The position numbers and the translations under genes are program-made. This document shows, piece after piece, positions 6,778-63,268 of a stretch of 64,000 bases of DNA. The stretch covers positions 1-64,000 of IMG/VR virus record IMGVR_UViG_3300035698_010625, one strand, 5' to 3'. The stretch is from a virus. Under the pieces are notes generated by a model that ran no database searches, was not told the DNA's origin, and worked only from the letters and a program-made list of their open reading frames with translations. Every line of letters begins with the position of its first letter. Within the stretch, counting starts at the first letter, position 1.

Positions 6778-7295
6778 AAACTTTTACTACATTTATGGAA
6801 GGAAAGAAAATGAAAAACTTGGGATATCTCTACTTTGATATGGATGGCGTACTCTGTAATTTTGAGAAGCGCGCTAATGAACTCCTACCTGGAGATTCTT
6901 TCAACTACATTGGTGATAAGGAATGGAAAGTTCTCAATCAAGCAAAAGGTTTTTGGTCTGATTTAGAGTGGATACCTGGTGCTAAAGGTATGATTGAAAA
7001 GATGAAACGGTACAGTCCTAGAATCCTATCAGCATACACTAAGAGCAATCCTTCAGTGTCACAAGATGGCAAAATGAAATGGTTAGCGAAAAACATCCCA
7101 TGGATCAAAAAAGGTAATATCAACCTTGTAGTAAGGCGTGATAAGAAACTTCATGCTATGACTGATGGAAAGGTAAATATACTTATTGACGATGTTGGTG
7201 GAAACATCAAAGAATGGAATGCTGCTGGCGGTATCGGAATTTTGCATACAGAAGTACGCATCACAATGAACACATTAAAGAGGTTGGGTTACTAA
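6774..7295 (+). CDS. HAD-family 5'(3')-deoxyribonucleotidase (NT5C-like)
   Basis: DMDGVL motif I, ILIDD, W..AGGIGILH; starts MKTFTTFME. Confidence 0.8.
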   Translation: MKTFTTFMEGKKMKNLGYLYFDMDGVLCNFEKRANELLPGDSFNYIGDKEWKVLNQAKGFWSDLEWIPGAKGMIEKMKRYSPRILSAYTKSNPSVSQDGKMKWLAKNIPWIKKGNINLVVRRDKKLHAMTDGKVNILIDDVGGNIKEWNAAGGIGILHTEVRITMNTLKRLGY

Positions 7296-32927: not shown

Positions 32928-33365
32928 ATGTCTAGTAACTGGGTTAATGATATTCGTCTAATGCACGAACACTTTGGTGTTACTGATTGGATGGATGATC
33001 TTAAAAATGAAACGAAGTTCGATGAATTTTTAGCATTTAGATTAAGGTTTCTCCAAGAAGAACTGGATGAAACAATGAAAGCTTGGAAAGAAGGTGATTG
33101 TGAAGAAATTGTTGATGGTTTAATAGATCTTTGTGTAGTAGCTATTGGAACACTTGATGCTTTCAATATTGACTCTAATAAAGCATGGAATAATGTATTA
33201 AAAGCAAATATGAGTAAAAATACAGGCGTAAATAAAACTCGCCCTAATGCACTTGGTCTTCCAGATTTGATTAAACCTATAGATTGGGAAGCACCTACAC
33301 ATAAAGAAAATCATGGATTGTTACTTGCGTGGCGTAATATTTCATCATTAGGTGAAGGCACATGA
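32928..33365 (+). CDS. MazG-like/all-alpha NTP pyrophosphohydrolase
   Basis: EELDE..EIVDGLID, V.KANMSK, DLIKP..W.AP. Confidence 0.75.
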   Translation: MSSNWVNDIRLMHEHFGVTDWMDDLKNETKFDEFLAFRLRFLQEELDETMKAWKEGDCEEIVDGLIDLCVVAIGTLDAFNIDSNKAWNNVLKANMSKNTGVNKTRPNALGLPDLIKPIDWEAPTHKENHGLLLAWRNISSLGEGT

Positions 33366-33733: not shown

Positions 33734-34409
33734 TATACGCGATAGATTTCGTGATGAACTGAAAAACGCTAGATACATTACAGATAAAAGTGGTGTAAAA
33801 ACTATTGAATTAATGTCTGTCAATTTCAAAGCAGATGAGACAAGTATCTTCGGTAAGGTTGATGAAAATTTTGTAAAGAGAGAAACTAATTGGTATTTAA
33901 GTCAATCGTTAAATGTTAATGATTTAGTAGATGCTCCTGCGATATGGAAATCTGTTGCATCACGCCATGGTGCAATCAATTCAAATTACGGATGGTGTGT
34001 ATACAGTAGAGAAAATGGTGACCAATACGGGTTTGTTTGTAATGAACTTTGGACTAATCCAGATTCACGTAGAGCTATCATGATTTACACTCGCCCTGAT
34101 ATGCACACTGCAGCTTTTAAAGAAAATATGAATGATTTTATGTGCACGAACACTGTACAGTATCTCATTCGTGATAGCAAACTTCATGCACATGTAAGTA
34201 TGAGAAGTAATGATGCAGTCTTTGGATATAAAAATGATTTTGCTTGGCAGCACCGTGTTTTTAGTCGGGTGTTAGAACTTATAAATCACCGCCGTGCTGT
34301 ATACGATGAAGATCCATTAATAGCTGGCGACATTATCTGGAATGTTGGTTCACTTCACATATACGAAAGACATTTTCATATAGTAGATTCACAGCAGGTA
34401 CTTTTATGA
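33714..34409 (+). CDS. dCMP hydroxymethylase-like (thymidylate synthase superfamily, T4 gp42-like)
   Basis: INSNYGW, DFMCT catalytic Cys, MRSNDAVFGYKND (Asp at the dCMP-specificity position), SLHIYERHF. Confidence 0.85.
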   Translation: MHQNVRDIRDRFRDELKNARYITDKSGVKTIELMSVNFKADETSIFGKVDENFVKRETNWYLSQSLNVNDLVDAPAIWKSVASRHGAINSNYGWCVYSRENGDQYGFVCNELWTNPDSRRAIMIYTRPDMHTAAFKENMNDFMCTNTVQYLIRDSKLHAHVSMRSNDAVFGYKNDFAWQHRVFSRVLELINHRRAVYDEDPLIAGDIIWNVGSLHIYERHFHIVDSQQVLL

Positions 34410-48402: not shown

Positions 48403-49374
48403 ATGGCACGCCGCTTTCGTATGACTGCAAAACGAAAAGCCCGCCTCGATTTTTTGGGCCTTTCGCTTGATGACCTCGACACTGACGTTCAAGGGATTCG
48501 CGTAACACGCGACGCCATCGACGCCATGGAAGAACTGATGGACGCCGCTGAGTCTGACATGCATCGCCAGCGCTTTTCAGCTGCGACGCTCGCTGAAGAC
48601 ACGCAGGAAACTGACGACGAAATCTTGGAGCGCTTGAACGACCGCTTCGAAATTTTGCAGGAACTGACTTCACTGGCCATCAAGGGTACCGCCAAGGGAC
48701 TCATCGTCTCTGGCCCACCCGGCCTTGGAAAATCGCACACCATCATGGAGATGGTTGCTGCTCTCGAACTCGAAGGCAAAGCTGAAGTCATCTCTGGGAA
48801 AGTCAAGACCACCGGCTTGTACAAAGTTCTGCACCGCCACCGCAAGCCCGGCCACGTGGTTGTCTTTGACGACTGCGACTCCATCTTCAGCGATGAAGAT
48901 TCGCTCAACATGCTGAAGAAGGTTTGCGACTCCACCAAGACGCGCCGCTTGTCATATCTTTCTGAATACCAGATTGTCGACGAGACCACACTCGAAGTCT
49001 GCCCTAACACTTTCGACTTCGAAGGCGCCGTGATTTTCATCACCAACTACAACTTCGATGATATGATCGAACGCGCCCATCGCCTTTCGCCACATCTCGA
49101 AGCCATGGTTTCACGCTCGCACTACATCGACTTGGCGATGCGCACCAAGCGCGACTACATGCTCCGCATCAAGCATGTAGTCGCGCATGGGATGCTACGC
49201 GACAACGGCCTCAACGCTGAACAAGAAGCAGATGTCATGGATTTCATCGCTGAAAACACCGACAATCTCCGTGAGCTTTCACTCCGCATCGCCCTCAAAA
49301 TTGGCGCCCTGCGGCTGACAAATGGAAATTGGCAGAAAACGGCCCGGGTCACCTGCTGCAGAAACCTAGCATAA
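48403..49374 (+). CDS. AAA+ family P-loop ATPase, early gene
   Basis: GPPGLGKS Walker A, VVVFDDCD Walker B, IFITN; RBS AGGAG; GC-rich. Confidence 0.8.
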   Translation: MARRFRMTAKRKARLDFLGLSLDDLDTDVQGIRVTRDAIDAMEELMDAAESDMHRQRFSAATLAEDTQETDDEILERLNDRFEILQELTSLAIKGTAKGLIVSGPPGLGKSHTIMEMVAALELEGKAEVISGKVKTTGLYKVLHRHRKPGHVVVFDDCDSIFSDEDSLNMLKKVCDSTKTRRLSYLSEYQIVDETTLEVCPNTFDFEGAVIFITNYNFDDMIERAHRLSPHLEAMVSRSHYIDLAMRTKRDYMLRIKHVVAHGMLRDNGLNAEQEADVMDFIAENTDNLRELSLRIALKIGALRLTNGNWQKTARVTCCRNLA

Positions 49375-50876: not shown

Positions 50877-50951
50877 GTGGCCGTGGCCGAATGGTTTAGG
50901 TGCCTGACTGTGAATCAGATTATATGGGTTCAATTCCCATCGGTCACCCCA
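50877..50951 (+). tRNA. tRNA-His(GUG)
   Basis: Cloverleaf, CT-GTG-AA loop, C73, CCA. Confidence 0.9.
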
Positions 50952-50966
50952 ATGAAAATTTACAAT

Positions 50967-51043
50967 GCCCTTCTAGCTAAACTGGACAAGGCCCTCGGCT
51001 ACGAACTGAGAGATTGAAGGTTCGAATCCTTCGGAGGGTACCA
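50967..51043 (+). tRNA. tRNA-Arg(ACG)
   Basis: Cloverleaf, CCA. Confidence 0.9.
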
Positions 51044-51223
51044 TATTAAGGAGTTTGTTATGAGTAAATGGGATTACCCCAAGACTAAGAAGAATTCTGA
51101 TGGAGCAAAACTGACTGCTGCTGAATTACGCGCACAAAGAAAAGCTCATCGGAAAGCAATTAAAGCTACTGCTCATACTGAACTCAAGACGAAGAAAAAT
51201 AAAGATCAAATTAAGTAACAATT

Positions 51224-51300
51224 GGGTGCTTCGTATAACGGCACATTATGTCGGACTCTTAATCCGAACGATCTGGGTTCGAATCCCAGGGTACCCACCA
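51224..51300 (+). tRNA. tRNA-Lys(CUU)
   Basis: Cloverleaf, CCA. Confidence 0.9.
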
Positions 51301-51315
51301 AACAAAGGTATTATT

Positions 51316-51588
51316 ATGGAATTCACTGCTGAACTTGCTAAACAAATAGTTGAAGAAGATCATGATGATTGGGAACAAGTTAATGAAGAATCTTCTAATT
51401 CTTCCCGATGGCATACTCATTACAGTGGTGTTTATAAAAATACATTAACTGGAAAATACTATGAATTTATTTGGCAGCGTGGTTCTACTGAATATCAAGA
51501 TGAAGGTACAGAATTTTACACTGACCCAATAGAAGCTGTAGAAGTTATTGAAAAATCAGTAACTGTAATGCGCTGGGTTGCTGTTTAG
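51316..51588 (+). CDS. hypothetical protein
   Basis: SRW..HY..V.K, W.RGSTEYQD phage motif. Confidence 0.65.
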   Translation: MEFTAELAKQIVEEDHDDWEQVNEESSNSSRWHTHYSGVYKNTLTGKYYEFIWQRGSTEYQDEGTEFYTDPIEAVEVIEKSVTVMRWVAV

Positions 51589-51683
51589 TTTGTACGCGGA
51601 CGGTACTGCTTGGCAGTCCACTTGAATATCTTGTGGGTCACTGCACAGTCCGGGTTGAAGAACCTTAAACTTAACTAACAATT

Positions 51684-51759
51684 GCCGGTGAAGCAATCAG
51701 GGTATTGCAACTCGTTGTCTGCGAGAGATAGGAGGGTTCGAGTCCCTTCATCGGCGCCA
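51684..51759 (+). tRNA. tRNA-Asp(GUC)
   Basis: Cloverleaf, TT-GTC-TG loop, GCCA. Confidence 0.8.
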
Positions 51760-51765
51760 ATTTTT

Positions 51766-51841
51766 GGGGGATTAGCTCATCTGGGAGAGCGTCTGTTTTG
51801 CAAGCAGAAGGTGATCGGTTCGAGTCCGATATCTTCCACCA
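51766..51841 (+). tRNA. tRNA-Ala(UGC)
   Basis: G3:U70, CCA. Confidence 0.93.
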
Positions 51842-51876
51842 TTTTACTAGAAAGATTCATATACTTTCTAGACATT

Positions 51877-51954
51877 CGTTCGGTAGCTCAGCCTGGTTAG
51901 AGCACCCGTCTGATACGCGGTAGGTCGAAGGTTCAACTCCTTCTCGAACGACCA
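51877..51954 (+). tRNA. tRNA-Ile(GAU)
   Basis: Cloverleaf, CCA. Confidence 0.88.
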
Positions 51955-52211
51955 ATTTAAAGAGCTTAGGTGTAGAAACGAGAATGCACCTTTAAGAAAA
52001 CCTTGTTGCTGGGCTACCCGATAAATCATCTTCTCAGATGTATGCAACACAAACTTCAGCTCTTCCTTTTGTACTGTCATGCGGGGTCGCCTCGGTGACG
52101 AAAGTGCTAGCGGGTACCGTCTTAGTAACGGTTTCACGAGGTGCAGGACCTCGGGGGTTTTCAGTTTCCACAATCGGGCTAGCTAAAACTGAAGTACAAT
52201 TTTATTACAAT

Positions 52212-52288
52212 GCTACGTTCGTCTAATGGACTAGGACTCTGGGTTTTCACTTCAGATAATATCGGTTCGAATCCGATACGTAGTACCA
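52212..52288 (+). tRNA. tRNA-Glu(UUC)
   Basis: Cloverleaf, CCA. Confidence 0.88.
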
Positions 52289-52296
52289 ATTTCAAT

Positions 52297-52372
52297 TCCT
52301 AGTTAGTATTCTTGGTGAGCACGGGTGACTGTTAATCACTTCAGGTAGGTTCGAATCCTACACTAGGAGCCA
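52297..52372 (+). tRNA. tRNA-Asn(GUU)
   Basis: Cloverleaf, GCCA. Confidence 0.88.
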
Positions 52373-52460
52373 AATCAATGAGAGTTTAGTTCAAGTTAGA
52401 ACATCTGGCGCAATAGTCAGAAGATGCTGGTATCGAATCCAGTCCCTTTCACCGAATAAT

Positions 52461-52546
52461 GGATGTGATGTACCGGTGGTGGTATAGCGGGCTGTAACCC
52501 CGTGGCTCTTATGGGCGAGTAGGTTCGACTCCTTCCACATCCACCA
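52461..52546 (+). tRNA. tRNA-Tyr(GUA)
   Basis: Long variable arm, CCA. Confidence 0.85.
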
Positions 52547-52634
52547 ATTTCGTTGGCAGTAAGGTCACGCATTGAGATTGACCTCCTAGTAATAGGTACC
52601 TGATGGGTAAATTAAAAAGTGCGATTTCAAATTC

Positions 52635-52712
52635 CGGTGATTAGCTCAGCCTGGTTAGAGCTCTCCGTTTGGGGCGGAGTTGCCAGAGGTTCGAATCCTC
52701 TATCACCGACCA
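52635..52712 (+). tRNA. tRNA-Pro(UGG)
   Basis: Cloverleaf, CCA. Confidence 0.92.
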
Positions 52713-52885
52713 ATAACTAATTATCTAATGTGCTTGCCGGCATATGCGGATGATTGCACGAACTTCTATTGATAACAAGCGGTAACTTGTAATCATAAGA
52801 TGAGTTAATTAGTAGTTTAACGGTAGATCGCCTGGCTGGAAGATGCGGGTTCGAATCCTGTCTAATTACTTTCGTGATTTACAAC

Positions 52886-52960
52886 AGTTCCTTAACTCAG
52901 AGGCAGAGTATCGCTTTTACACAGCGAAGGTCGAGATTTCGAAATTCTCAGGAACTACCA
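52886..52960 (+). tRNA. tRNA-Val(UAC)
   Basis: Cloverleaf, CCA. Confidence 0.88.
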
Positions 52961-53148
52961 GTAACTAATCAACAGCTCGATGGGAGTCTTGCTATTTGAT
53001 TGCACAGCGTCTTACTCCCATAAGATTTATTGATAGTGTAATGGATGCACACTGGGGTTTAAACCTGGAAGTACGGTTCGATTCCGTGATTAATAACTTG
53101 GGCTGTGATTTACAAATCGCTTGAGCAACTGCTCGCGTACAATACAAT

Positions 53149-53236
53149 GGGAGTGTGGTGGAATTGGTATACACATTGGTCTTAGAAACCAACGACTGTA
53201 ATGGTCACGCAGGTTCGACTCCTGTCACTCCTACCA
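53149..53236 (+). tRNA. tRNA-Leu(UAG)
   Basis: Long variable arm, CCA. Confidence 0.92.
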
Positions 53237-53319
53237 ATCAATGTTCGATTAGCATAATGCAATGCGGCAAGTACTTGTAGAAGAAAGCTCGAATCTTTCA
53301 TCGAACTCCAAATTTAAAC

Positions 53320-53393
53320 GCTCAATTAGTTCAATGGTAGAACAACGGCCCGGTAAGTCGTTAACGTAAGTTCGATTCTTACATTGAGCACCA
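53320..53393 (+). tRNA. tRNA-Thr(GGU)
   Basis: Cloverleaf, CCA; C at position 33 (atypical). Confidence 0.85.
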
Positions 53394-53561
53394 ATTAATG
53401 CCCGGTTCGTCTAAATATTAGGACCTCTGCCATATTTGAGCAGAAAATAAAAGTGAGATTCTTTTACCGGACACCAAACAATGCCAAGGTCGTCTAATAA
53501 TCTAAGACCCTCTCGTGATAGAGAGAAATGAGGTGTAAATCCCCCCGAGGCACCAAACAAT

Positions 53562-53637
53562 GCTGGAGTCGTCTAACGGCTAGGACTTTACATTCTCAGT
53601 GTAAACAATGCGAGTTCGAATCTCGTCTCCAGTACCA
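53562..53637 (+). tRNA. tRNA-Glu(CUC)
   Basis: Cloverleaf, CCA. Confidence 0.88.
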
Positions 53638-53642
53638 AATCT

Positions 53643-53729
53643 GGATTGATCCGCTGGGTAGGCCGGCAGCACGGTTTGAACCCGTGGGTGACCGAAAGGT
53701 TAGGGGTTCGACTCCTCATCTCTCCGCCA
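53643..53729 (+). tRNA. tRNA-Ser(UGA)
   Basis: Long variable arm, GCCA; acceptor mismatches. Confidence 0.8.
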
Positions 53730-53965
53730 ATTTTATCCTTCGCTCGTCTAATGTTAAGACACCAAACCGTGGAGGTTTGGGGATAGAGGTTTGATTCCTT
53801 TGCTTAGGACCAATTTTAATGACTACTTCCTATACGTAGGTTAATAACTGAAAAGTTAAGAGTGGTCACCAAGTTATCCCACACTCATCGAATGGTACGG
53901 TAAACGTTAAGAAACGTTTCGTGGGGAGTTTATCAGAAAGCCGTGACAGATAGACAACTAACAAT

Positions 53966-54039
53966 AGCTGCATAGCATAGTGGTAATGCGGGGGTCTTTG
54001 AAACCTCTCAGTAAGGTTCGATTCCTTATGCGGCTGCCA
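53966..54039 (+). tRNA. tRNA-Gln(UUG)
   Basis: Cloverleaf, GCCA. Confidence 0.88.
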
Positions 54040-54125
54040 ATTTTGATGTGGATATAATCTATCCCTTGTGCGGGTGCCCCTAGTAATAGGTCAAGGCAGC
54101 AAACTGCTCACATCAGATTTAATAT

Positions 54126-54212
54126 GGAAGATTAACTAGACAGGGTTCTAGAGCTGTTTGCTAAACAGATGGTACCGCAAGGTATGAGTTTCGAATACTC
54201 AATTTTCCGCCA
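54126..54212 (+). tRNA. tRNA-Ser(GCU)
   Basis: Long variable arm, GCCA. Confidence 0.87.
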
Positions 54213-54241
54213 AACATAAAGAAAAATTAAGTATTAACAAT

Positions 54242-54316
54242 GGGACTCAGGTGTAACTGGGTGCACGGCGGACTTTTAATCCGTAAGGACAGGGTTCAAG
54301 CCCTGGGGTCCCACCA
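54242..54316 (+). tRNA. tRNA-Lys(UUU)
   Basis: Cloverleaf, CCA. Confidence 0.88.
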
Positions 54317-54403
54317 AATGTAAATGGAAATGCTTCGGCATTGTAAAACTCACCGAAAGGTTTCCACCCAAGTGTGGATATAAAGAAGTTCCGATTAGTC
54401 AAT

Positions 54404-54477
54404 GCGTCTAAGTACAAGGTGTATCCTCGGGTTTCCAACCCGTAGTGAGTGGGTTTCGATTACCCCTAGTCGCTCCA
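54404..54477 (+). tRNA. tRNA-Gly(UCC)
   Basis: GCG start, U73, CCA; atypical D arm. Confidence 0.75.
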
Positions 54478-54482
54478 ACAAT

Positions 54483-54555
54483 AGTTATCTAGCTCAACTG
54501 GCAGAGCACTAGCTTCATACGTTAGGGAATCTCGGTTCAAATCCGAGGGTAACTA
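54483..54555 (+). tRNA. tRNA with CAU anticodon (Met elongator or Ile2); no encoded CCA
   Basis: Cloverleaf; ends A-CAA. Confidence 0.85.
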
Positions 54556-54561
54556 CAATCT

Positions 54562-54569
54562 TATAAATA
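54562..54569 (+). promoter_or_regulatory. T4-type late promoter inside the tRNA island
   Basis: TATAAATA upstream of the MQTFKSFTE ORF. Confidence 0.8.
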
Positions 54570-54595
54570 CTCTTTTAATAAACGAGTATCAGAAA

Positions 54596-54850
54596 ATGCA
54601 AACTTTTAAAAGTTTCACCGAAGGAAATGTCGTTAAATTTCCTAAGAAGAAAAAACAAACCCACGATGAAATTACTGGATTGCCAATTGATTCACGTCTT
54701 CCAGATACCCCAGACGAATGGATGGTTGTATCAAAGGATGAGAGTGTAGCATATAGCACTTCACCAACTCGTCAAGAAGCACAGAAAAAACTTAAGACGT
54801 ATATGATGAAGACAGGTAAGAGAGATCTTAAAGTCATCAAATTTGGCTAA
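54596..54850 (+). CDS. small late protein with capsid-targeting-like N-terminus (internal protein candidate)
   Basis: MQTFKSFTEG; own late promoter. Confidence 0.6.
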   Translation: MQTFKSFTEGNVVKFPKKKKQTHDEITGLPIDSRLPDTPDEWMVVSKDESVAYSTSPTRQEAQKKLKTYMMKTGKRDLKVIKFG

Positions 54851-54859
54851 GATAATCCT

Positions 54860-54888
54860 CGCCAAGAAGGTCTAAACCATATATAATG
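54860..54888 (+). promoter_or_regulatory. phage early/middle promoter GCCAAGAAGGTCNAAACCATATATAAT
   Basis: Near-identical copy at 61427-61453; TATAAT -10. Confidence 0.7.
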
Positions 54889-54898
54889 ATATAACAAA

Positions 54899-54970
54899 GC
54901 GGGTATAGCTCAGTGGTAGAGCGGAACGTTGCCAACGTCCAGGTCGAGAGTTCGAATCTCTCTACCCGCT
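54899..54970 (+). tRNA. tRNA-Gly(GCC); no encoded CCA
   Basis: Canonical cloverleaf; ends U-CUA. Confidence 0.9.
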
Positions 54971-55180
54971 CTAATTTAGGATTATATGATGAATTTGGGA
55001 CTAACAAGTGATTGTGAGGCAGAAGCATATTTTGATAGCGCTGATACTTACATCAAACAATACAACGCTACTTATATGTTTGAGAATAGTTCTGCGAGAG
55101 TCCGAACTATCATTGCTGAATATTTTGCTAATCTAGATAATAAAACTATTTGGCTTTGGAAAACTAAGAGTGATTGAATC

Positions 55181-55399
55181 ATGCGCCTTATCATTTCGCG
55201 GACTAACAATGACAGCACTTTGGACTTCGAAGTTCATGATGCACGTTGGGTTACTTTTAGTGATAAAATGAAAGCATTTGCTTGGACTCGTCCGGGTAAT
55301 AAGCTTGGAATTTACTTCTCCGAGGAATATGTCAATCGCCGCTTTGTGAACATCTTTTGCATTAGCGCGCTTGAGAACATGCACTGGCAGGTTAAGTGA
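55181..55399 (+). CDS. hypothetical protein
   Basis: Short ORF in small-gene run. Confidence 0.45.
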   Translation: MRLIISRTNNDSTLDFEVHDARWVTFSDKMKAFAWTRPGNKLGIYFSEEYVNRRFVNIFCISALENMHWQVK

Positions 55400-55409
55400 G
55401 GATTACATT

Positions 55410-55601
55410 ATGTGGATTCGATTTGAAGAGAAACAACCCAAACAAGATAAAGACCTTTATTACTTCTTCGATGTAGTAGGTGTTCACTCAGGGCGCTATT
55501 ACGGCGGTGATACATTTCAAGGCCGAAGAGGTTTTCTCAATGGTGACGTTACTCATTGGCAATATGATAAAGGGCAGGGAAAACCTGCTGAACCAAAATG
55601 A
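55410..55601 (+). CDS. DUF551-like small protein
   Basis: MWIRFEEKQP...VTHWQ pattern. Confidence 0.55.
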   Translation: MWIRFEEKQPKQDKDLYYFFDVVGVHSGRYYGGDTFQGRRGFLNGDVTHWQYDKGQGKPAEPK

Positions 55602-55606
55602 ATAAT

Positions 55607-55683
55607 GCAAGAGTGGCTCGACTGGTGAAGGCCGGCGTCTTATATGCGTCTATATGTGGGTTCGAATCCCGCCTCTTGTACCA
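55607..55683 (+). tRNA. tRNA-Ile(UAU)
   Basis: GGCGT-CT-TAT-AT-GCGTC arm, CCA. Confidence 0.85.
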
Positions 55684-55691
55684 AAATATTT

Positions 55692-55768
55692 CAGGGTATA
55701 AGTCAGTCTGGTAGACACCCCGGTTTGGAACTGGGAAGCCGTTGGTTCGAATCCAACTACCCTGACCA
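55692..55768 (+). tRNA. tRNA-Pro(UGG), second copy
   Basis: Cloverleaf, CCA. Confidence 0.9.
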
Positions 55769-55785
55769 TTTAAAGAGAGTACATT

Positions 55786-56046
55786 ATGCTTACATTCAAT
55801 ATTAAAGATTTCTTTTGTTGGCATAGTATTCAAAAAGAAGAGTCATTTGAAGCTTTTCATGCAAGAGCAGAAGCACTGCATGAAACTTATCAACATTGGA
55901 CTCCTGTAAATGAAATTGAAAGAACAAATAGAGCAGTATGTTTTGTATCTTTTATTAACAATCACCCAAAAATCGTAAATCCATATACTGGTAAAACAAA
56001 AAAACAATTTTCTTTAACGGAATATCCTATATCTACCTTGTCTTAA
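55786..56046 (+). CDS. hypothetical protein
   Basis: ORF between tRNAs. Confidence 0.45.
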   Translation: MLTFNIKDFFCWHSIQKEESFEAFHARAEALHETYQHWTPVNEIERTNRAVCFVSFINNHPKIVNPYTGKTKKQFSLTEYPISTLS

Positions 56047-56069
56047 AGGTTGTATAATGATTATTCAAT

Positions 56070-56145
56070 ACACGGTAAGCAATTATGGTTAATGCGCTGG
56101 CTTGAAGTCCCAGATAACTAAGTTCGATTCTTAGACCGTGTACCA
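56070..56145 (+). tRNA. tRNA-Phe(GAA)
   Basis: Cloverleaf, CCA. Confidence 0.85.
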
Positions 56146-56168
56146 ATTTATTATGGAGTGACTGTGAT

Positions 56169-56870
56169 ATGTTTGCTGATTTTTGCACTGATCATTTCTC
56201 GACGAGTAACAATGCACATTACAGAAATCCGCGAACTGTTGACCAAAATGTAATTGCTAATGAGACAATGCTATTTAGCGCATCTCCAGAATTTGCTACT
56301 GCAAATGGTGGCCCACTTACTGCTTACTTTCTCTCCAAGCTTTTTGATGGTGGATTTGAAAGCATTGATACTCGAGGAATGCATTGGGTCATTGATACTC
56401 GCTCGCACATGCTGATGCCAGGTCAATTTCCTTCTATTCCAGGTTGGCATTGTGATGCTTGGGAGCGAGATCCAAAGACACAACAACCACTTTTATGGCA
56501 GCACCCACATGGTACCGCTATGCATTTTGTAATGACACTTGGTACTAATGATGATGGTGTATCACTTACAAAATTCATACTTCCTTTTGGTGTGCCGATT
56601 CGTGTATCTTACGATCCATCCAAAGTTTGGGGTTCTGTAAACGAATCAATTGAACACCAAATTGAAGATCTCGTTATATCACCAGATAGAATTATTAGTG
56701 CGCCTTCAGGGACACTCATTTCGTTTGGACAAAACATATTACATACGGCTAGTGTAGCTACCAGTAAAGGCTGGCGCTTCTTTGCTCGTATAAGTTTAAT
56801 GACAAATCCACCACTCAACAAAATTCGAAAACAGGTACAAGTTTACGCTGATTCAAATGTTGGTTGGTAA
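56169..56870 (+). CDS. 2OG-Fe(II) dioxygenase-like protein
   Basis: PGWHCD (HxD), distal LHTA, R.F.R end motif. Confidence 0.65.
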   Translation: MFADFCTDHFSTSNNAHYRNPRTVDQNVIANETMLFSASPEFATANGGPLTAYFLSKLFDGGFESIDTRGMHWVIDTRSHMLMPGQFPSIPGWHCDAWERDPKTQQPLLWQHPHGTAMHFVMTLGTNDDGVSLTKFILPFGVPIRVSYDPSKVWGSVNESIEHQIEDLVISPDRIISAPSGTLISFGQNILHTASVATSKGWRFFARISLMTNPPLNKIRKQVQVYADSNVGW

Positions 56871-56954
56871 ATGAATTAAGGGAAACGTTGGTTCGAGTCC
56901 AACTCCTGCGCTGGTGCAAAGGATCGTAATTGATGGCCAAGACACCCTTACGTT
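56870..56954 (+). ncRNA. circularly permuted tRNA-like RNA (YrlA/Y-RNA-like order)
   Basis: TAAGGG/CCCTTA stem enclosing T arm, then closed acceptor-like hairpin, then D-like arm. Confidence 0.55.
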
Positions 56955-56959
56955 ACAAT

Positions 56960-57033
56960 GTTGATATGGCAGAATGGTTATGCCGTGGCTTGCAAACCCA
57001 CTTACTCTGGTTCGATTCCGGATATCAACTCCA
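56960..57033 (+). tRNA. tRNA-Cys(GCA)
   Basis: U73, CCA. Confidence 0.88.
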
Positions 57034-57285
57034 AGATAAGGCTTTAGCCGCAGCAGAGTAGTCAGGCATGACATAAAAGGTCGAAATGAAAAAGTTTAGC
57101 CGGCTCGACCAGCTTTATTTCTGAGTTCAAAGGTGGTCCTGAGCACGATGGATATGCACCAATTGTAAAAAATGTCTGTGATGGTGATTATACCGAATTC
57201 TCAGTTTGTTTGGAATGTGGTACTCTGAAAGGTACTTTCCCGGTTGATGATCCTGTTTGGAATGATGAAGAAGAAGATTAACAAT

Positions 57286-57358
57286 GCGCCGCGCTCTGGG
57301 TAAGCAGTATGGTTTCCAATGCCTCGCGTGTGGAGTTCGATTCTCTGGCGGCGTGCAC
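57286..57358 (+). tRNA. atypical tRNA, probably Trp(CCA)
   Basis: Acceptor and T arm good; weak D and anticodon stems; TT-CCA-AT loop; no CCA. Confidence 0.5.
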
Positions 57359-57380
57359 CTGTAATAGATTAAAGAATAAT

Positions 57381-57456
57381 AAGAGTATAGTATAATGGCT
57401 CATTACCCCGGGCTCTGAACTCGGTAATCTAGGTTCGAATCCTAGTACTCTTGCCA
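57381..57456 (+). tRNA. tRNA-Gln(CUG)
   Basis: Cloverleaf, GCCA. Confidence 0.9.
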
Positions 57457-57463
57457 AATATAC

Positions 57464-57538
57464 GCCTGCTAAGCATTAATGGTGATGCACTGGTTTTGTA
57501 ATCCAGAGAAGAGGGATCGTTACCTTCAGTCGGCACCA
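57464..57538 (+). tRNA. tRNA-Thr(UGU)
   Basis: Cloverleaf, CCA. Confidence 0.82.
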
Positions 57539-57541
57539 AAT

Positions 57542-57615
57542 CGCGAGATGTTGAAATGGCATCCTGCTGGGCTCATAACCCTTCGTTGGCGGTTCAACTC
57601 CGTCTTTCGCTACCA
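57542..57615 (+). tRNA. initiator tRNA-fMet(CAU)
   Basis: C1:72 mismatch, GGG/CCC in anticodon stem, CCA. Confidence 0.8.
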
Positions 57616-57729
57616 ACTTTGTGAGATCGTCAAGTGTAATTATGTTAAAGCCCGAGATGATGACATTACAAAATGTACGAATCGGTTAATCTTTAACTAG
57701 CACAAGGGACATCTCACAAACTTTTTTAT

Positions 57730-57868
57730 GTTGTAACTGCAAGGATAATGCAGGGTGGTTGGAGAGCTTGTGAGGGTGTACAACCTTTTATCCACAGGTA
57801 TAAAGTTAGCTTTAACAAATCGAGGCGCTTTATAAATCTCTAGTGAAGTTCGATTCTTCATTACAACA
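57730..57868 (+). ncRNA. tRNA-like RNA with ~85-nt insert replacing the anticodon region
   Basis: GTTGTAA/TTACAAC acceptor, CTGCA/TGCAG D-like arm, TGAAG-TTCGATT-CTTCA T arm. Confidence 0.55.
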
Positions 57869-57876
57869 CTTTCAAT

Positions 57877-57964
57877 GGGAGTATGGTGGAATTGGTATAC
57901 ACAGCAGACTTAAAATCTGCCGCCTGTAATGGGCTCGGGGGTTCGAATCCCTCTACTCCTACCA
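57877..57964 (+). tRNA. tRNA-Leu(UAA)
   Basis: Long variable arm, CCA. Confidence 0.92.
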
Positions 57965-58404
57965 AATTAAGGTAAATATGATGCAGGAAACAAGCACTAA
58001 AACTATAGCAGATAAAGAAGCATTGATTCTGTCTGCTGGTGAATGTTATCCAGATACATCTAGTTTTATACGAGATGAAGTTGTGAAAGACATTAATTTT
58101 AAGCTAGTTGATAAGATGTGGGGCAAATAACGAGTGTTGCTCATGCTCCAACCTTCATATACAATGGTGAATGTAAACCTTGTGTAAGTAGGTTGTACCG
58201 TAGCTATTTGAGATACACTTATATAACTGCTGCACACATTAATGCACTGGTGTATGACATGGTAGTGGAATTAGATGATTTACTTATAGATGCTTCTGAA
58301 TTTCACCCATATATGATGGCGATACCACAATTAGCTGAAGAAGAATATATTGAATTTAATCGAATTGCATTCAAACTTCGATTTGCATTTTAAAGATTAA
58401 CAAT

Positions 58405-58479
58405 GCCCCGGGTGTTGGATACACAGCAGAGGTTTCTACCCTCAGCCTTCTGGGTTCGACTCCTAGTCGGGGTACACCA
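58405..58479 (+). tRNA. tRNA-Arg(UCU)
   Basis: GAGG-TT-TCT-AC-CCTC arm; T arm; atypical D arm and 3' end (ACACCA). Confidence 0.7.
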
Positions 58480-58492
58480 TTTAAGGTTCATT

Positions 58493-58771
58493 ATGAAATA
58501 TCTTCTTGAGTTGTATTGGATGTGGAGGGACCGCCAAAGAGCAGAAGCTGAACTCGATAAATTCATAGCTGTTAAAAAGTGGGATGCTAGCATTCGTTGG
58601 AATAATGACAAATCGGTTGAAAACATTCTTTATATTGGTCTTGAAAATGGCCGTGGTGAACGTAAAATACAAATTCATGATTATGGATTAACCCGTACTT
58701 ATTCTAAGTCGAAGGCCCATCTCATTTATACAAAGTACGTTTTGCCATGGCAGCATAAAATAAATGAATAA
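58493..58771 (+). CDS. hypothetical protein
   Basis: Start moved downstream of tRNA. Confidence 0.5.
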   Translation: MKYLLELYWMWRDRQRAEAELDKFIAVKKWDASIRWNNDKSVENILYIGLENGRGERKIQIHDYGLTRTYSKSKAHLIYTKYVLPWQHKINE

Positions 58772-58877
58772 TAACCTTTATCTTAAGGTCCTATATTGAT
58801 ATAATATACTTATTGGAACGCACCTATTTTGCTGTCAACGCAATGTTGGCTTTTTTGTAATTAAACGGGGATACATT

Positions 58878-59702
58878 ATGATTACGCGAAACAAATTGGC
58901 TGTTGCTATTCTTGCTGCAGTTTCCATTACTACCGCAGCACACGCATCTGAAGTTACTACAATCACCGCTGGCTCCAAGGGCGGTGCATACGCTACTTAT
59001 GGCAACAATCTTGCAACTATGCTCACCCAGAATGATTGGAAGAGTAAGGTTATTCGCAGTAAGGGTTCAATTCAGAATATTGCCCGTCTTGTAGATGGCT
59101 CAGCACAAATTGGTTTCACCCAGGGCGATGCTTTGCAGCTCTCAAAGGCTGGTGGTAAGATTGATATTCTTGGAGCACTTGGAATGGAATGTGCTTTCAT
59201 TGTTTACAGTAAGAAGGGTAAGGTCACTGACGAAGATCATCTTCAGAATGAGGGTGTGAAAATTGCTGTTGGTAAGAAAGGTACTGGTTCACAAGCAACG
59301 TGGTCTTACATGGTTCAGCTAGAACCTGCATACGGTAATGCATCTGCACAGTATACTGGCGGAGCTCGCGCACTTGGCGCACTCAAAGCAGGCACTGTTG
59401 ACGCTGTTCTCTTTGTCACCGATCCCACTAATCTGAGTCATAAGCTTATTCAAGCAGTAAATGGTGATCCAGACCTCGATTTTCTAGACGTTGATGACAG
59501 TGACTTGAATGATGATCTACCTAATGGCACGCCTGTCTATGAATTCAAAGAAGTTGACACTGAAACGGGTGCTTTCGCGGATGACGTAGATACTATCTGT
59601 ACGCCTTTGCTAGTAATTGCTAGTGCAGATGCTGACGAAGACATGCTTGATGATGCTGCAGGAATTATGCTAAGCAATCGCAATGCGGTGCTTGGTAAGT
59701 AA
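58878..59702 (+). CDS. TAXI-family TRAP transporter solute-binding protein
   Basis: Signal peptide (AHA), GSKGGAY, SKGSIQNI, AQIGFTQGD, VGKKGTGS. Confidence 0.8.
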   Translation: MITRNKLAVAILAAVSITTAAHASEVTTITAGSKGGAYATYGNNLATMLTQNDWKSKVIRSKGSIQNIARLVDGSAQIGFTQGDALQLSKAGGKIDILGALGMECAFIVYSKKGKVTDEDHLQNEGVKIAVGKKGTGSQATWSYMVQLEPAYGNASAQYTGGARALGALKAGTVDAVLFVTDPTNLSHKLIQAVNGDPDLDFLDVDDSDLNDDLPNGTPVYEFKEVDTETGAFADDVDTICTPLLVIASADADEDMLDDAAGIMLSNRNAVLGK

Positions 59703-59725
59703 CAATGCAAAAGATAGTCGTTCCC

Positions 59726-59923
59726 AAGTTAGTACTTAATCGCTCTACGGAGAGGAAAGTCGGGACAAGCGGCATGATCGTGTGGGAGGAGTTAACTCCG
59801 CTTTACCACCGTGACATAGCTTGCAACACAAACAGGATTAGACAAATTGTGCATCAATGATATCCGGGTTGTGGCCAATAGACGAATGATAGCATAGAAC
59901 AGGATCCCGCTTACGGATTACTT
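59726..59923 (+). ncRNA. minimal RNase P RNA (rnpB-like)
   Basis: GAGGAAAGTCGGGA (CR-I) pairs with AACAGGATCCCGCTTA (CR-V) as P4 with bulged U; AGACGAATGAT (CR-IV); P5, P15 and L15 GGU can be drawn. Confidence 0.8.
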
Positions 59924-60212
59924 ACTACTTACAAGGAGCAAATGATGAGCAAGGTATACCCTCACTCAAGCACTAAGCAACGCGAACGATACGTGAAACA
60001 AAACGCTATTAAAGGCGAACGCTCTATCGGGCAAACTGATGCTTCAGTAGGCTGGTATGGACTTACAGTAAATTGGAAAGCTATTGTGCGTGGTGCACCG
60101 TGTTACATTACAACTAACTAAAAGGAGCAAGATATGCGCTTGATGAATTTAGAGCACCTCCTTAAATTGTGATTTTTGGTAAAACACTAATTCACACTTA
60201 AGGAAACATCTA

Positions 60213-60590
60213 ATGAAAATCACTTATCTCAAAATTAAAGTAAAGTCACTAGCAGCAGAGTCACGCATGATCCGCCAAGAGGAGTTGAAACTCAAACGTC
60301 GATACCAGGCGATTAAACTGTTGGACAATCAGTATGACACTGCAGCAGAAGAGGGAGACATAAGGTCTACTCGTTTAGGTCTTTATGAACACCGTACAGA
60401 TGATGTACGTCGAGAGTCGCGTGTAGCTAATATTGCTTACGGTCTACTTCGAGGAAGAGAGTATAGCAAAATTGAGCGAGGAGTTCGGGAGTTTAATCAA
60501 CCGAAATGGACACGCGTTACAAAGTTGATTGAGAAGTATTCAAACAGTGAGGAGCAGAAGGTTAAAGCTTTTCAACTGATTGAGCAGTAA
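60213..60590 (+). CDS. conserved phage hypothetical protein
   Basis: LKIKVKSLAAESRMIR..R...IAYGLLRGREY. Confidence 0.65.
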   Translation: MKITYLKIKVKSLAAESRMIRQEELKLKRRYQAIKLLDNQYDTAAEEGDIRSTRLGLYEHRTDDVRRESRVANIAYGLLRGREYSKIERGVREFNQPKWTRVTKLIEKYSNSEEQKVKAFQLIEQ

Positions 60591-60597
60591 ATATCAT

Positions 60598-60624
60598 GAC
60601 GGAGCGCTTCGGCGCTCTCGTTTT
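60598..60624 (+). terminator. UUCG hairpin terminator
   Basis: GAGCGC-TTCG-GCGCTC followed by TCGTTTT. Confidence 0.6.
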
Positions 60625-60838
60625 GGCTGACACGGTGACTACCTGGCTTTCAATCCAAAGGAGTTTAGGGTTCGATTCCCTTATCAGCCACCAAATTTTA
60701 GGAGAGGCATTATGAGTATATTTGCTTGGATTGTTTTTCCATTTTTATTCCCCGTGGTTGTCGCAATGTTTTGGGTGCTGACACATGTGGATCCATACAC
60801 TGGTAAGGTTCATTGGAATCTTACGTGGTAAACGATAT

Positions 60839-61128
60839 CATGTAGTAGTTTAAATGTTGGCATTATGAGGAAAGGTGAAGATTATTTGAAAGTAAAATTA
60901 AGTTAGTAGCAATTCTGTAGTGGTGATGTAACGAGACGTGTAGGTAAAAACGTGAGCCAAATGAAAGATTGGACAGGCATCATCATCGAGGGCGTTGCGA
61001 ATTCTTCTTTTGAACCCTTTAATTAGTAACCTTTACTTACGTGTCACACGGAAAAACGCTAGGAACCCCCCCGCTTACGCGTCTCTTAATCCTGGATATC
61101 CACGGTTCAATACCGGGCTACATGGCCA
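60839..61128 (+). ncRNA. ~290-nt tRNA-scaffolded RNA
   Basis: CATGTAG/CTACATG-GCCA acceptor, T arm, D stem GTTT/AAAC around ~195-nt insert, enlarged anticodon loop. Confidence 0.6.
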
Positions 61129-61152
61129 ATTTCTTGAAACGGAGTTTATAAT

Positions 61153-61398
61153 ATGAATGATTATTTTAATGCGTTTATTATGATTTTGGTTATAGCGATA
61201 GTAACAAATGTTGGTTGGATTATTAATTATGATGATCTTAAAACACTTCATGAAAAGGCGTTAAGTATTCATAAGATTGAAGTCATGCAACATAGACAAG
61301 CTATTTGTCGTAGTGCAACAGCTGAACACGCAACTAATACTGCTACACTCTTCGAAGCAATCAATAAGCTCAATTCTGCTGCTAAGGCTGCAGAATAA
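61153..61398 (+). CDS. small membrane-anchored protein
   Basis: N-terminal TM; RBS GGAG. Confidence 0.5.
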   Translation: MNDYFNAFIMILVIAIVTNVGWIINYDDLKTLHEKALSIHKIEVMQHRQAICRSATAEHATNTATLFEAINKLNSAAKAAE

Positions 61399-61459
61399 TT
61401 TACTTTAATGGCATAAGATATACCTTGCCAAGAAGGTCGAAACCATATATAATGGTACT

Positions 61460-62347
61460 ATAATCTGAACACAAACTAATAGATTGGGTCGCGTGGGATC
61501 CATAAGATAAGTAGCAGTAATGTTACGAAAGGCTATCTCATTTACGGATAGCGCCACTTTTATGAAGGTGGACATCTACGCAAGCCAAGCTCTTTACGGG
61601 TACCTCCGGGTGCTCTGGAAGATAAGTTGTGACCGACAAACACATCCAGGCCAACGGTGAGGATGATAGATTCCGCAAGAATCTCGGGTCAAGCAAAAGC
61701 AACGAACTTCAATGAGCAAAGGGTAGATTGAAAAGTTAAGCTTGCAGGTAAGGCTTTCAATCAATACGATAGGTGAAAGAAGATACAGCCTTCTGGAATC
61801 TAGAAATATTGCTAAGTAGCTCGCAAGGCGAAAGGTACGAGGTGGGTGGTATTTGGTAACTCAAAGGTTATTGAGCCACAGGCATTCGCTCATCTTAAAA
61901 TGTAAATATGTAAACGGAATAGGGGAATAGGTACACCCGCCCGGCCGCCAAAGCCAGGATCTGTTGGTTCGAATCCAACTTTCGTTATCAACTTTGTATT
62001 GATAACAAATCTTAAATGCAAAGACGAATGCCACCGTGAAGTGGAAATTGCTTAATCCTCAAACCCATAGGGTAATTGAGGTTCAGGATGCTCGCAAGGC
62101 GGATTGAATTAGTTGGAGTCACAGGTAAATTCTTAGCGGAGTTACACAGCCCAGCAAGGCTGACCGGTCGATGAATGCTGAAAAGCTCGCGGATAGAGGA
62201 ATCGCTACCTCTTTAAACAAAGCAGCAATGGTTGATTACTATGCCGCTCTTCGGAGGGTAAAGTGGAAAAGAGAAGAACCTAGCGGATCGCACCGTGTGG
62301 ATAATTTCTCGAAGGATCAACTGCATATGAGTATATTCTCAACTCAT
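61460..62347 (+). ncRNA. large structured ncRNA, GOLLD-like, with embedded tRNA-like element (61913-61990)
   Basis: Own promoter (-10 at 61448-53); ~890 nt without credible ORF; many GCAA/GNRA hairpins; GGCATTCG/CGAATGCC helix flanking the insert; terminal TGAG-TATATTCTCAA-CTCA hairpin. Confidence 0.65.
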
Positions 62348-62557
62348 CTGTTTACTTATGGCAGGTTGTACGTTCTCTGCCTTAAACGTACTGGCTTTCT
62401 GGGGAGGCTCAGATAACCGGGTAGTTCACCTAACTACCTGCCATAAGTAAATAGGAAGATAATATGAACATTGATAAAGTTGAACTTCAGAAGATCTTTC
62501 TTGAAGTTTTTACTAAACACCCAGAAGCTGCAAAGATTTTTCTAAAGGGTAATAACT

Positions 62558-62857
62558 ATGAGCACGACCCCTACAAGAAGTTTGAGAGTTGAAAGATCAT
62601 ATACAAATAAGTTTAACCAAGTAATTGAAGTTGGTGATGAAGTAGTATTTGTTGCAACTTCTTGGGGTGGTACTGATATTCGCCAAGGTGTTTATCTTGG
62701 ATATTACCCACGCACTGGTTGGGATGGTCGCCCTGCACTTCATGCTGCTAGTGTATCATACATTGGTAAGGAGTGGGATGGAAGAAAATGGATTGACGAT
62801 GCAGTACTTCATTCTGTTCTTGAACTCGGTCGTGTTTTCAAAATTGAGAAAGTATAA
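62558..62857 (+). CDS. hypothetical protein (paralog of next ORF)
   Basis: N...Q.IEVGD.V...R.G.Y.G...R.FKI pattern. Confidence 0.6.
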   Translation: MSTTPTRSLRVERSYTNKFNQVIEVGDEVVFVATSWGGTDIRQGVYLGYYPRTGWDGRPALHAASVSYIGKEWDGRKWIDDAVLHSVLELGRVFKIEKV

Positions 62858-63174
62858 TGGCATTCCTCGAAGAGTCATTTGTCAATGAAATCGGGCAACG
62901 TATTGAAGTTGGGGATCGTGTAATAGCGGTCGCACATGGATACAATCTCAACTGCCGTCCTGGTATCTATGAAGGTTATCACAGTCATGGCGAACAATAT
63001 TATACTATCTCACAACTTGTAGAAACTGCAGATGGTGGGTTTAAGAAAGATGAACGTGGTAATTATGTGAGATATACGAAAAAACATTATTACATTCGAA
63101 TGTTACATCGCGTATTGTACGATGAAGGTTGGCGTGGAATACTTCAGAATGGTAACATTTTCAAAATTGCATAA
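62857..63174 (+). CDS. hypothetical protein (paralog of previous ORF)
   Basis: NEIGQRIEVGDRV...RPGIYEG...IFKI. Confidence 0.6.
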   Translation: MAFLEESFVNEIGQRIEVGDRVIAVAHGYNLNCRPGIYEGYHSHGEQYYTISQLVETADGGFKKDERGNYVRYTKKHYYIRMLHRVLYDEGWRGILQNGNIFKIA

Positions 63175-63178
63175 CAAT

Positions 63179-63268
63179 GGCATTGTGGTGGAACTAAGGT
63201 ATACACAGCGTCTTCAAAAGCCGCCGGTCTTTGAGACTATGAGGGTTCGACTCCCTCCGATGCTACCA
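63179..63268 (+). tRNA. tRNA-Leu(CAA)
   Basis: Long variable arm, CCA. Confidence 0.88.

Follow-up and report, generated by a model that had tools for sequence, protein, structure and literature searches.

Seven tRNA-shaped units without a usable anticodon loop in the large tRNA array of a T4-like phage contig

RESULTS

Seven look-alike units in a phage tRNA array

We analyzed the first 64 kb (64,000 nucleotides; hereafter, the window) of the 105.6-kb IMG/VR virus contig IMGVR_UViG_3300035698_010625, which is estimated to be 59% complete, and focused on seven tRNA-look-alike units, named m1 to m7 in map order, that lie on the plus strand between positions 52380 and 53871. The contig carries T4-like structural genes (terminase, major head protein of the gp23 type, and tail sheath). 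The phage is isolated: its capsid protein is at most 58% identical to that of any cultured phage and at most 67% identical to matches in IMG/VR, which are on short contigs. The seven units are part of a very large tRNA array that occupies the plus strand from 50,877 to 63,268 and in which ARAGORN called 29 tRNAs at the default threshold and 32 at the relaxed -ps threshold, nearly all with an encoded CCA. A search for a terminator-like site on the plus strand between 50.9 and 54.6 kb found none. The original prediction for this region was a cluster of tRNA mimics that keep a recognizable elbow and/or a CCA end and have no usable anticodon, and each of the seven units that it listed could be parsed at the position given for it.

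Anatomy of the units

The cleanest of the seven is m3 (53243 to 53310). Its acceptor (7/7 pairs), D (4/4), and T (5/5) stems are all perfect, its T loop is CUCGAAU, its tail is UCCA, and its leader reads aucaau up to the first base of the unit. The D loop has no GG, and the anticodon loop is shortened to 2 to 4 nt, physically a 4-bp stem with a GUAC loop. m3 folds as a cloverleaf and, searched alone, scored 43.0 bits against the Rfam tRNA family RF00005 (gathering cut-off of 29 bits), with the anticodon-loop positions deleted in the alignment.

m2 (52806 to 52868; 37.3 bits against RF00005) also has a 7/7 acceptor stem, together with a D loop containing GG, the T arm GCGGG-UUCGAAU-CCUGU, and no CCA; a 10-nt stub stands in place of the 17 nt of an anticodon arm. 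It is identical at 44 of 61 positions to a UUA suppressor-like tRNA that starts at 53028, and its sequence reads as though the loop had been excised between two CTGG words. This suppressor-like tRNA (53028 to 53097; 30 bits against RF00005) has an A/T-rich acceptor stem and no CCA, and its anticodon UUA would read UAA; a second UUA-type unit was called at 57797 to 57869 at the relaxed ARAGORN threshold. Recoding around the UUA tRNA is not evident, as the long open reading frames (ORFs) of the contig are uninterrupted under translation table 11. The 93-nt spacer on the 5' side of m2 (52713 to 52805) forms two hairpins (minimum free energy of −23.3 kcal/mol; z-score of −2.7) and may be another small structured RNA.

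m4 (53400 to 53476) has a 6/7 acceptor stem, a Glu-type D stem, a perfect 5-bp anticodon stem with a 9-nt loop, a 5/5 T stem with the loop UGAGAUU, and an ACCA end; its unconstrained fold is a cloverleaf with a z-score of −2.38. In m5 (53483 to 53555), the D stem of the Glu-type D arm and the 5-bp anticodon stem are perfect, the anticodon loop is 6 nt, the acceptor stem is 5/7, the T arm is broken, and the end is ACCA. With 50 of 71 positions identical to m4, m5 is probably a tandem paralogue of it, and probably a degenerate one. Its acceptor mismatches (4:69 and 5:68) are at the same positions as those of m6 (53737 to 53812), which also has a Glu-type D arm and an ACCA end and in which the T loop is UUUGAUU. 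The anticodon stem of m6 is perfect and is 7 bp with a 5-nt loop or, if C32-G38 stays open, 5 bp with the 7-nt loop CGUGGAG. With the 5-bp arm, m6 reads as a Pro(UGG) tRNA with G33 (called as Pro(tgg) by ARAGORN -ps); it scored 33.6 bits against RF00005. It combines the Pro-type features C1:G72, A73, and UGG, which are ProRS identity elements in Escherichia coli, and may still be a chargeable Pro-type tRNA.

m1 (52380 to 52454) has a 5/7 acceptor stem, a 4/4 D stem, an 8-nt T loop (UAUCGAAU), and the tail ACCG, i.e., no CCA. Its anticodon arm is 6 bp with a 6-nt loop or 5 bp with an 8-nt loop, and ARAGORN called a 4-base anticodon, caat, at the relaxed threshold. The unconstrained fold is a cloverleaf (z-score of −2.98), and the score against RF00005 is 28.9 bits. 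m7 (53821 to 53871) is a 51-nt three-way junction with an 8-bp acceptor-like closing helix and an ACCA tail. Both of its hairpins are capped by special tetraloops, UACG (UNCG type) and GAAA (GNRA type), and the fold has a frequency of 0.53 and a z-score of −2.23. The possibility that m7 is a piece of a larger RNA was rejected, as it remains its own domain when folded with its 3' flank. Thus, m2, m3, and m6 score above the RF00005 cut-off, m1 is just below it, and m4, m5, and m7 are undetected by RF00005 and matched no Rfam family at an E value of ≤10.

The predicted details largely held. They comprised the perfect stems, UCCA, and 4-nt loop of m3; the 9-nt loop of m4, the 6-nt loop of m5, and the 7 bp plus 5 nt of m6, all three with ACCA; the aberrant nature of m1; the 51-nt length, closing helix, two hairpins, and ACCA of m7; and acceptor mismatches in several units (m1, m4, m5, and m6). 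For m2, the stub anticodon arm was recovered, and the extended acceptor helix also proposed for it was rejected based on a fold z-score of −0.7.

Stems, loops, and flanks

As predicted, none of the seven units has a 7-nt anticodon loop with U33 and R37. The loops are 2 to 4 (m3), 5 or 7 (m6), 6 (m5), 6 or 8 (m1), and 9 nt (m4) in size; m2 has the stub, and m7 has no such loop. To compare stems with loops, we counted base pairs and conserved loop bases in the five cloverleaf units m1 and m3 to m6. About 95 of 105 stem pairs (~90%) are kept, compared to 94% in the real tRNAs of the array; a script gave 89 pairs, and the count was then adjusted manually because m1 has an 8-nt T loop and the D stem of m6 had slipped in register. 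Conserved loop bases are kept at 30 of 55 positions (55%) versus 91% in the real tRNAs. When the two anticodon-loop positions are left out, 30 of 45 are kept, which is still below the pairs (p = 7e-4). The D-loop GG is present in 0/5 of these units versus 28/29 real tRNAs (p = 2e-5), and the UUC T loop is likewise present in 0/5. Only m2 has both, and the elbow is therefore missing in five of the six cloverleaf units, contrary to the prediction that it would be recognizable. Retention of the CCA end was predicted as well and is found in five of the seven units (NCCA in m3 to m7) and not in m1 and m2.

The flanks are those of tRNA genes in the array. U(−1) is present in 7/7 units and an AAT leader in 5/7 (background of 3%; p = 6e-7), and the gaps between m1 or m3 to m7 and the neighboring tRNAs are 5 to 9 nt, as at real tRNA-tRNA junctions. 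A strict scan that required an acceptor stem of ≥6/7, a T stem of 5/5, and NCCA identified six units on the plus strand between 52373 and 53965, namely, four real tRNAs, m3, and m4; shuffled sequences gave 0.07 and the minus strand gave 1. When folded without constraints, m1, m3, m4, and m6 are cloverleaves, m7 forms a clean junction, and fold z-scores of the units range from −0.9 to −3.0, similar to real tRNAs.

The best identity of each unit to the tRNAs of the array is 65 to 72%, which is the level between unrelated tRNAs. Based on these values, we rejected recent duplication from an array tRNA, and because no parent tRNA is recognizable, the units are not young. Old neutral relics would be expected to have lost their stems, and the fact that the stems have held argues against plain decay. 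Moreover, neutral drift loses a pair faster than a single base, so the contrast between stems and loops points to selection on the helices. Covariation among m4, m5, m6, and two Glu tRNAs was not used as evidence, since paralogues derived from working tRNAs look compensatory without later selection.

For pseudogenes, lesions would be expected alike in stems and loops, with decaying flanks. The group does not show this pattern, although m1 and m5, when each is considered by itself, are compatible with it, and the paired special tetraloops of m7 are not what decay yields. Helices, the U(−1)/AAT leader, and NCCA are kept and the tRNA-specific loop bases are lost, in agreement with the original argument that random decay does not account for the units. 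It appears that the helices and the processing signals are under selection and that the bases for decoding or for the L shape are not. In our reading, the cluster is heterogeneous, with m3, m4, and m7, and probably also m2 and m6, being maintained RNAs and m1 and m5 being doubtful. This reading takes into account the multiple lesions of m1 and m5, the acceptor mismatches of m4 to m6, and the possible origin of m2 and m3 by single deletions.

Searches for relatives

When the region and individual mimics were compared by blastn with 50,697 phage records, no usable match was obtained, the mimics giving matches at chance level only, and an exact 24-mer of m3 had no usable match in IMG/VR. Protein scans for close relatives with the ORFs at 56169 to 56870 and 48403 to 49374 identified no close relative of the phage; homologues of the ORF at 56169 are 40 to 48% identical. 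A profile scan based on an alignment of 25 homologues returned 65 loci, nearly all of which are without tRNA arrays and none of which has mimic homologues. We also found no mimic homologue in the tRNA arrays of three distant T4-like records and no match to a 20-mer of tRNA-Thr(GGU) in metagenome contigs.

Comparison with known tRNA-like RNAs

The tRNA region of phage T4 gives rise to RNAC and RNAD, small stable RNAs with no assigned role (PMC3014915). In the annotation of phage T5 (NC_005859), RNA1 (30501 to 30644), RNA2 (32959 to 33083), and RNA3 (33877 to 33949) are listed as "tRNA-like stable RNA with unknown functions." Like the m units, T5 RNA1 to RNA3 lie inside a tRNA cluster, on the strand of the tRNAs and abutting tRNA genes. 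In its fold, the 73-nt T5 RNA3 has an acceptor helix and an anticodon arm of 6 bp with a 6-nt loop; its T loop is 8 nt long (CAUCGAAU), its D loop lacks GG, and it ends in ACCA. m1 resembles it in the arm of 6 bp plus 6 nt, in the 8-nt T loop, and in the lack of GG. Homology of the two was rejected (score of 8, ~2.4 standard deviations over shuffles), and they have the architecture in common but not the sequence; homologues of T5 RNA3 were found only in T5-like phages, at ≥90% identity. T5 RNA1 and RNA2 are larger than the m units (125 to 144 nt), and the T5 RNAs have been observed as stable RNAs, whereas the m units are known here from sequence alone. The T5 cluster also holds an annotated pseudo-tRNA.

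T4 RNAC and RNAD map beside tRNA-Arg (NC_000866, 70908 to 71171). Similar to the m units, RNAC closes in its fold with a canonical T arm and an acceptor-like stem. RNAC and RNAD differ from the m units in their length of 119 to 139 nt, their long inserted hairpins, and the lack of an encoded CCA. Sequence similarity of the m units to the T4 or T5 RNAs was not significant in any case. What the m units share with T4 RNAC and T5 RNA3 is partial tRNA anatomy, i.e., an acceptor-like closing helix and a T arm, with no decoding loop. The m units therefore appear, as judged by their sequences, to resemble the T4/T5 tRNA-cluster RNAs in position and partial anatomy as a variant and not as members. We do not count them as members, since homology was looked for and not found and since their stability is predicted.

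Canonical tRNAs (RF00005) and the m units have the cloverleaf stems, the array position, RNase P-type junctions, and CCA tails in common; the m units differ in having no 7-nt anticodon loop with U33 and R37 and, in five units, no elbow bases. Phage tRNAs that evade nucleases through anticodon-loop changes have been described (PMC10264068), but those variants have point changes in a normal 7-nt loop, whereas the loops of the m units are deleted or enlarged. Soil metatranscriptomes contain irregular tRNA polycistrons and inactive allo-tRNAs (Mukai et al., PMC5389517), and B. cereus has tRNA-Other (PMC3399842). All of these RNAs are tRNA-shaped like the m units and are transcribed, sometimes charged, and unused in translation. 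Unlike the m units, they are bacterial and retain an anticodon loop, and they are distinguished by an acceptor/T geometry of 8/4 or 9/3 or by a distinct context.

A half-size RNase P RNA and tRNA-associated enzymes

The same array encodes a half-size RNase P RNA on the plus strand (59728 to 59929), which matches the bacterial class A RNase P family (RF00010) over its whole length (38.3 bits; E value of 1.1e-10). Its specificity domain is reduced from about 110 to 23 nt. The RNA keeps the catalytic core strands GAGGAAAGUC and ACAG..CC.GCUUA and a GGGU stretch that Rfam aligned to the consensus CCGGGU segment; the GGU of this stretch corresponds to the L15 element, which in M1 RNA pairs with the tRNA CCA. 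The specificity domain of RNase P reads the elbow formed by the T loop and the D loop. An enzyme without this elbow-reading domain should depend on what the elbow-less mimics have retained, namely, the acceptor helix, U(−1), and CCA.

The short spacing of the CR-I/CR-V motifs was also found in 10 other IMG/VR contigs (12 to 190 kb; loci L160 to L169), and in 9 of these 10 contigs, the motif pair is within a tRNA array. These contigs are unrelated to the phage (capsid identity of ≤35%), and none of them has mimic homologues. The gaps of two of the arrays contain uncalled tRNA-shaped units (L168 at 7105 to 7197 and 8925 to 8995 [reverse-complement orientation] and L166 at 4181 to 4272), one of which has a large anticodon-arm insert.

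At the other end of the window, the plus strand encodes a nucleotidyltransferase of the CCA-adding/poly(A)-polymerase family (4705 to 5835; PF01743 at 94 bits and PF12627) and a small-alarmone-hydrolase-like protein with an HD_4 (RelA/SpoT-type hydrolase) domain (6217 to 6777; PF13328 at 70 bits). An NT5C nucleotidase gene (6774 to 7295) adjoins the two, inside the structural-gene block. A peptidyl-tRNA hydrolase gene was sought on the contig, and none was found.

Other features of the array

Three units of the array have odd anticodon loops. An otherwise good Thr(GGU) tRNA (53320 to 53393) has C33 in the loop CCGGUAA, an otherwise good Asp(GUC) tRNA (51684 to 51759) has U37, and a tRNA-Trp-like unit (61913 to 61987) has G33. 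The Trp unit lies inside a GOLLD RNA (RF02032) that Rfam placed at 61,839 to 62,345 with 151.6 bits. These loops may be linked to the evasion of anticodon nucleases. Default ARAGORN missed a Ser(GCU) tRNA with a long variable arm (54126 to 54212), a Gly(UCC)-like unit in which the D arm is weak and position 73 is U (54404 to 54477), a Trp-like unit without CCA (57286 to 57356), and a further unit that has a UUCGAUU T arm and ends in NCCA (60625 to 60693).

DISCUSSION

We favor, with about even confidence, the explanation that the seven units derive from tRNA genes, have lost the ability to decode, and give rise to processed RNAs, five of them CCA-tailed. From the anatomy, the spacing, the flanks, and the contrast between stems and loops, we infer how the units might be transcribed and processed, how stable they could be, and what function they could have. 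They would be transcribed with the real tRNAs from one plus-strand array, and RNase P, in the form of either the host enzyme or the phage half-size RNA, would cut them at the U(−1)|+1 junctions. Five units would be released as RNAs of 51 to 77 nt and trimmed to the NCCA tail. The units would then persist as small RNAs that are unusable by the ribosome because they lack both the anticodon loop and the elbow. The set is diverse: in m2, m3, and m7, the acceptor/T-type top half is perfect and the anticodon arm has been deleted or sealed; m4 and m6 are cloverleaves that have no elbow; and m1 and m5 look partly degenerate.

The role that we prefer is the most likely of those considered but, in itself, less likely than not: the units could be surrogate tRNA 3' ends that occupy or soak up factors reading only the acceptor stem, the T arm, and the CCA. 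Factors of this type are known from defense systems. Cas12a3 cleaves CCA tails, removal of the loops is harmless to cleavage, and a CCA hairpin is a substrate (PMC12851939). The toxSAS enzymes pyrophosphorylate the CCA end, with FaRel2 selecting its targets by the acceptor stem (bioRxiv 10.1101/2024.07.05.602228), and MenT extends acceptor ends (PMC11541572). The mimics would act beside the phage CCA-adding-type enzyme, and a pool of cheap CCA-tailed look-alikes could blunt attacks on the CCA end.

The original prediction had proposed decoys for tRNA-targeting toxins, nucleases, or RelA or, alternatively, carriers of amino acids outside translation. A decoy is plausible for factors whose recognition is limited to the acceptor/CCA end, and it would fit the phage CCA-adding-type enzyme and SpoT-type hydrolase. 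RelA senses deacylated tRNA that is paired with a codon in the ribosomal A site, and a RelA decoy is unlikely because this sensing requires an anticodon. The carrier proposal found no support, in that no gene for a FemAB-type transferase was found on the contig, which is a partial test given a contig that is 59% complete.

Several points weigh against processed, non-decoding RNAs. CCA is missing in m1 and m2, acceptor mismatches in m4, m5, and m6 weaken a pure top-half view, the T arm is absent in m5, and a single recent deletion in a functional tRNA could account for m2 and likewise for m3. The contrast between stems and loops presumes ancestors with canonical loops, and the ancestors may already have had odd loops. 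The genes for the CCA enzyme and the hydrolase are 47 kb away from the units, and this link is circumstantial. Finally, neither a mimic homologue nor a close relative of the phage was found in the cultured-phage records, IMG/VR, the distant T4-like arrays, and one metagenome scan.

Part of this evidence would suit tRNA pseudogenes, i.e., dead duplicates or deletion derivatives that await purging and are perhaps processed but functionless, an alternative that we regard as possible though not probable. Not only the acceptor mismatches in m4, m5, and m6, the lost T arm of m5, and the failure to show conservation point in this direction but also the four separate lesions of m1, the resemblance of m2 to a slippage deletion between CTGG repeats and of m3 to a single 5-nt loop deletion, and the presence of a pseudo-tRNA in the T5 cluster. 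However, the lesions gather in the loops while the helices hold at ~90%; leaders, spacing, and NCCA are intact; the unrecognizable parents imply that the units are not young; and phage genomes shed useless DNA fast. The tetraloop-capped junction of m7 is no decay product.

It is unlikely, in our view, that the units act in cis only, as folding or cleavage punctuation for precursor processing or as an exonuclease shield, with the released RNA having no role. The tight packing of the units between real tRNAs with the same junction motifs is consistent with such an arrangement. So is the fact that the array has a short RNase P RNA of its own, and in nine of the ten other contigs, the short RNase P motif pair likewise lies inside tRNA arrays. 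Nevertheless, adjacent real tRNAs manage with spacers of 3 to 9 nt and no mimic between them, and the retention of full-length cloverleaves and CCA tails would be left unexplained.

The least probable alternative is that some units are unorthodox decoders, with m6 as a nuclease-escaping Pro(UGG) tRNA and m1 (8-nt loop) or m4 (9-nt loop) as frameshift or four-base decoders; it draws on the Pro-type features and 33.6 bits of m6, the four-base anticodon that ARAGORN read in m1, the odd loops of good array tRNAs (C33 in Thr(GGU) and U37 in Asp), and the reported evasion of nucleases by phage tRNAs through loop changes (PMC10264068), but two standard Pro(UGG) genes are already present in the array, m6 has neither U33 nor the elbow bases and is mismatched at two acceptor positions, m2, m3, and m7 have no loop able to decode, and no gene requiring a four-base codon was seen, the long ORFs being intact under table 11. 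A frameshift suppressor has an 8-nt loop on an intact, chargeable tRNA; only m1 forms an 8-nt loop, and m1 has no CCA, an 8-nt T loop, and two acceptor mismatches.

Returning to processed RNAs that no longer decode, a more far-reaching scheme, which we consider quite improbable as a whole, is that the phage RNase P RNA, with its elbow-reading domain missing, is the intended maturation enzyme of the CCA-tailed mimics without an elbow, which would be sacrificed as tRNA 3' ends. Together with the CCA enzyme and the SpoT-type hydrolase, they would then form a three-part shield of the tRNA pool against CCA clipping, extension, and pyrophosphorylation by host immunity of the Cas12a3, MenT, and CapRel/FaRel2 types.

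The tRNA-like RNAs of the T4 and T5 clusters have been known for decades, and a function has never been assigned to them. The array analyzed here has seven designs within 1.5 kb, including a loop-deleted tRNA, elbow-less cloverleaves, and a tetraloop-capped minihelix, in the same array as a half-size RNase P RNA. If the units are relics, they would provide a measure of how fast large phage tRNA arrays turn over. If they are processed and stable, they would be substrates with which to ask whether phages use non-decoding look-alikes against defenses that act on the acceptor end, and they could show whether an RNase P without a specificity domain handles elbow-less substrates. Elbow-less CCA-tailed units are found here together with an RNase P RNA from which the elbow-reading part is missing, a testable pairing that raises the interest of this array.

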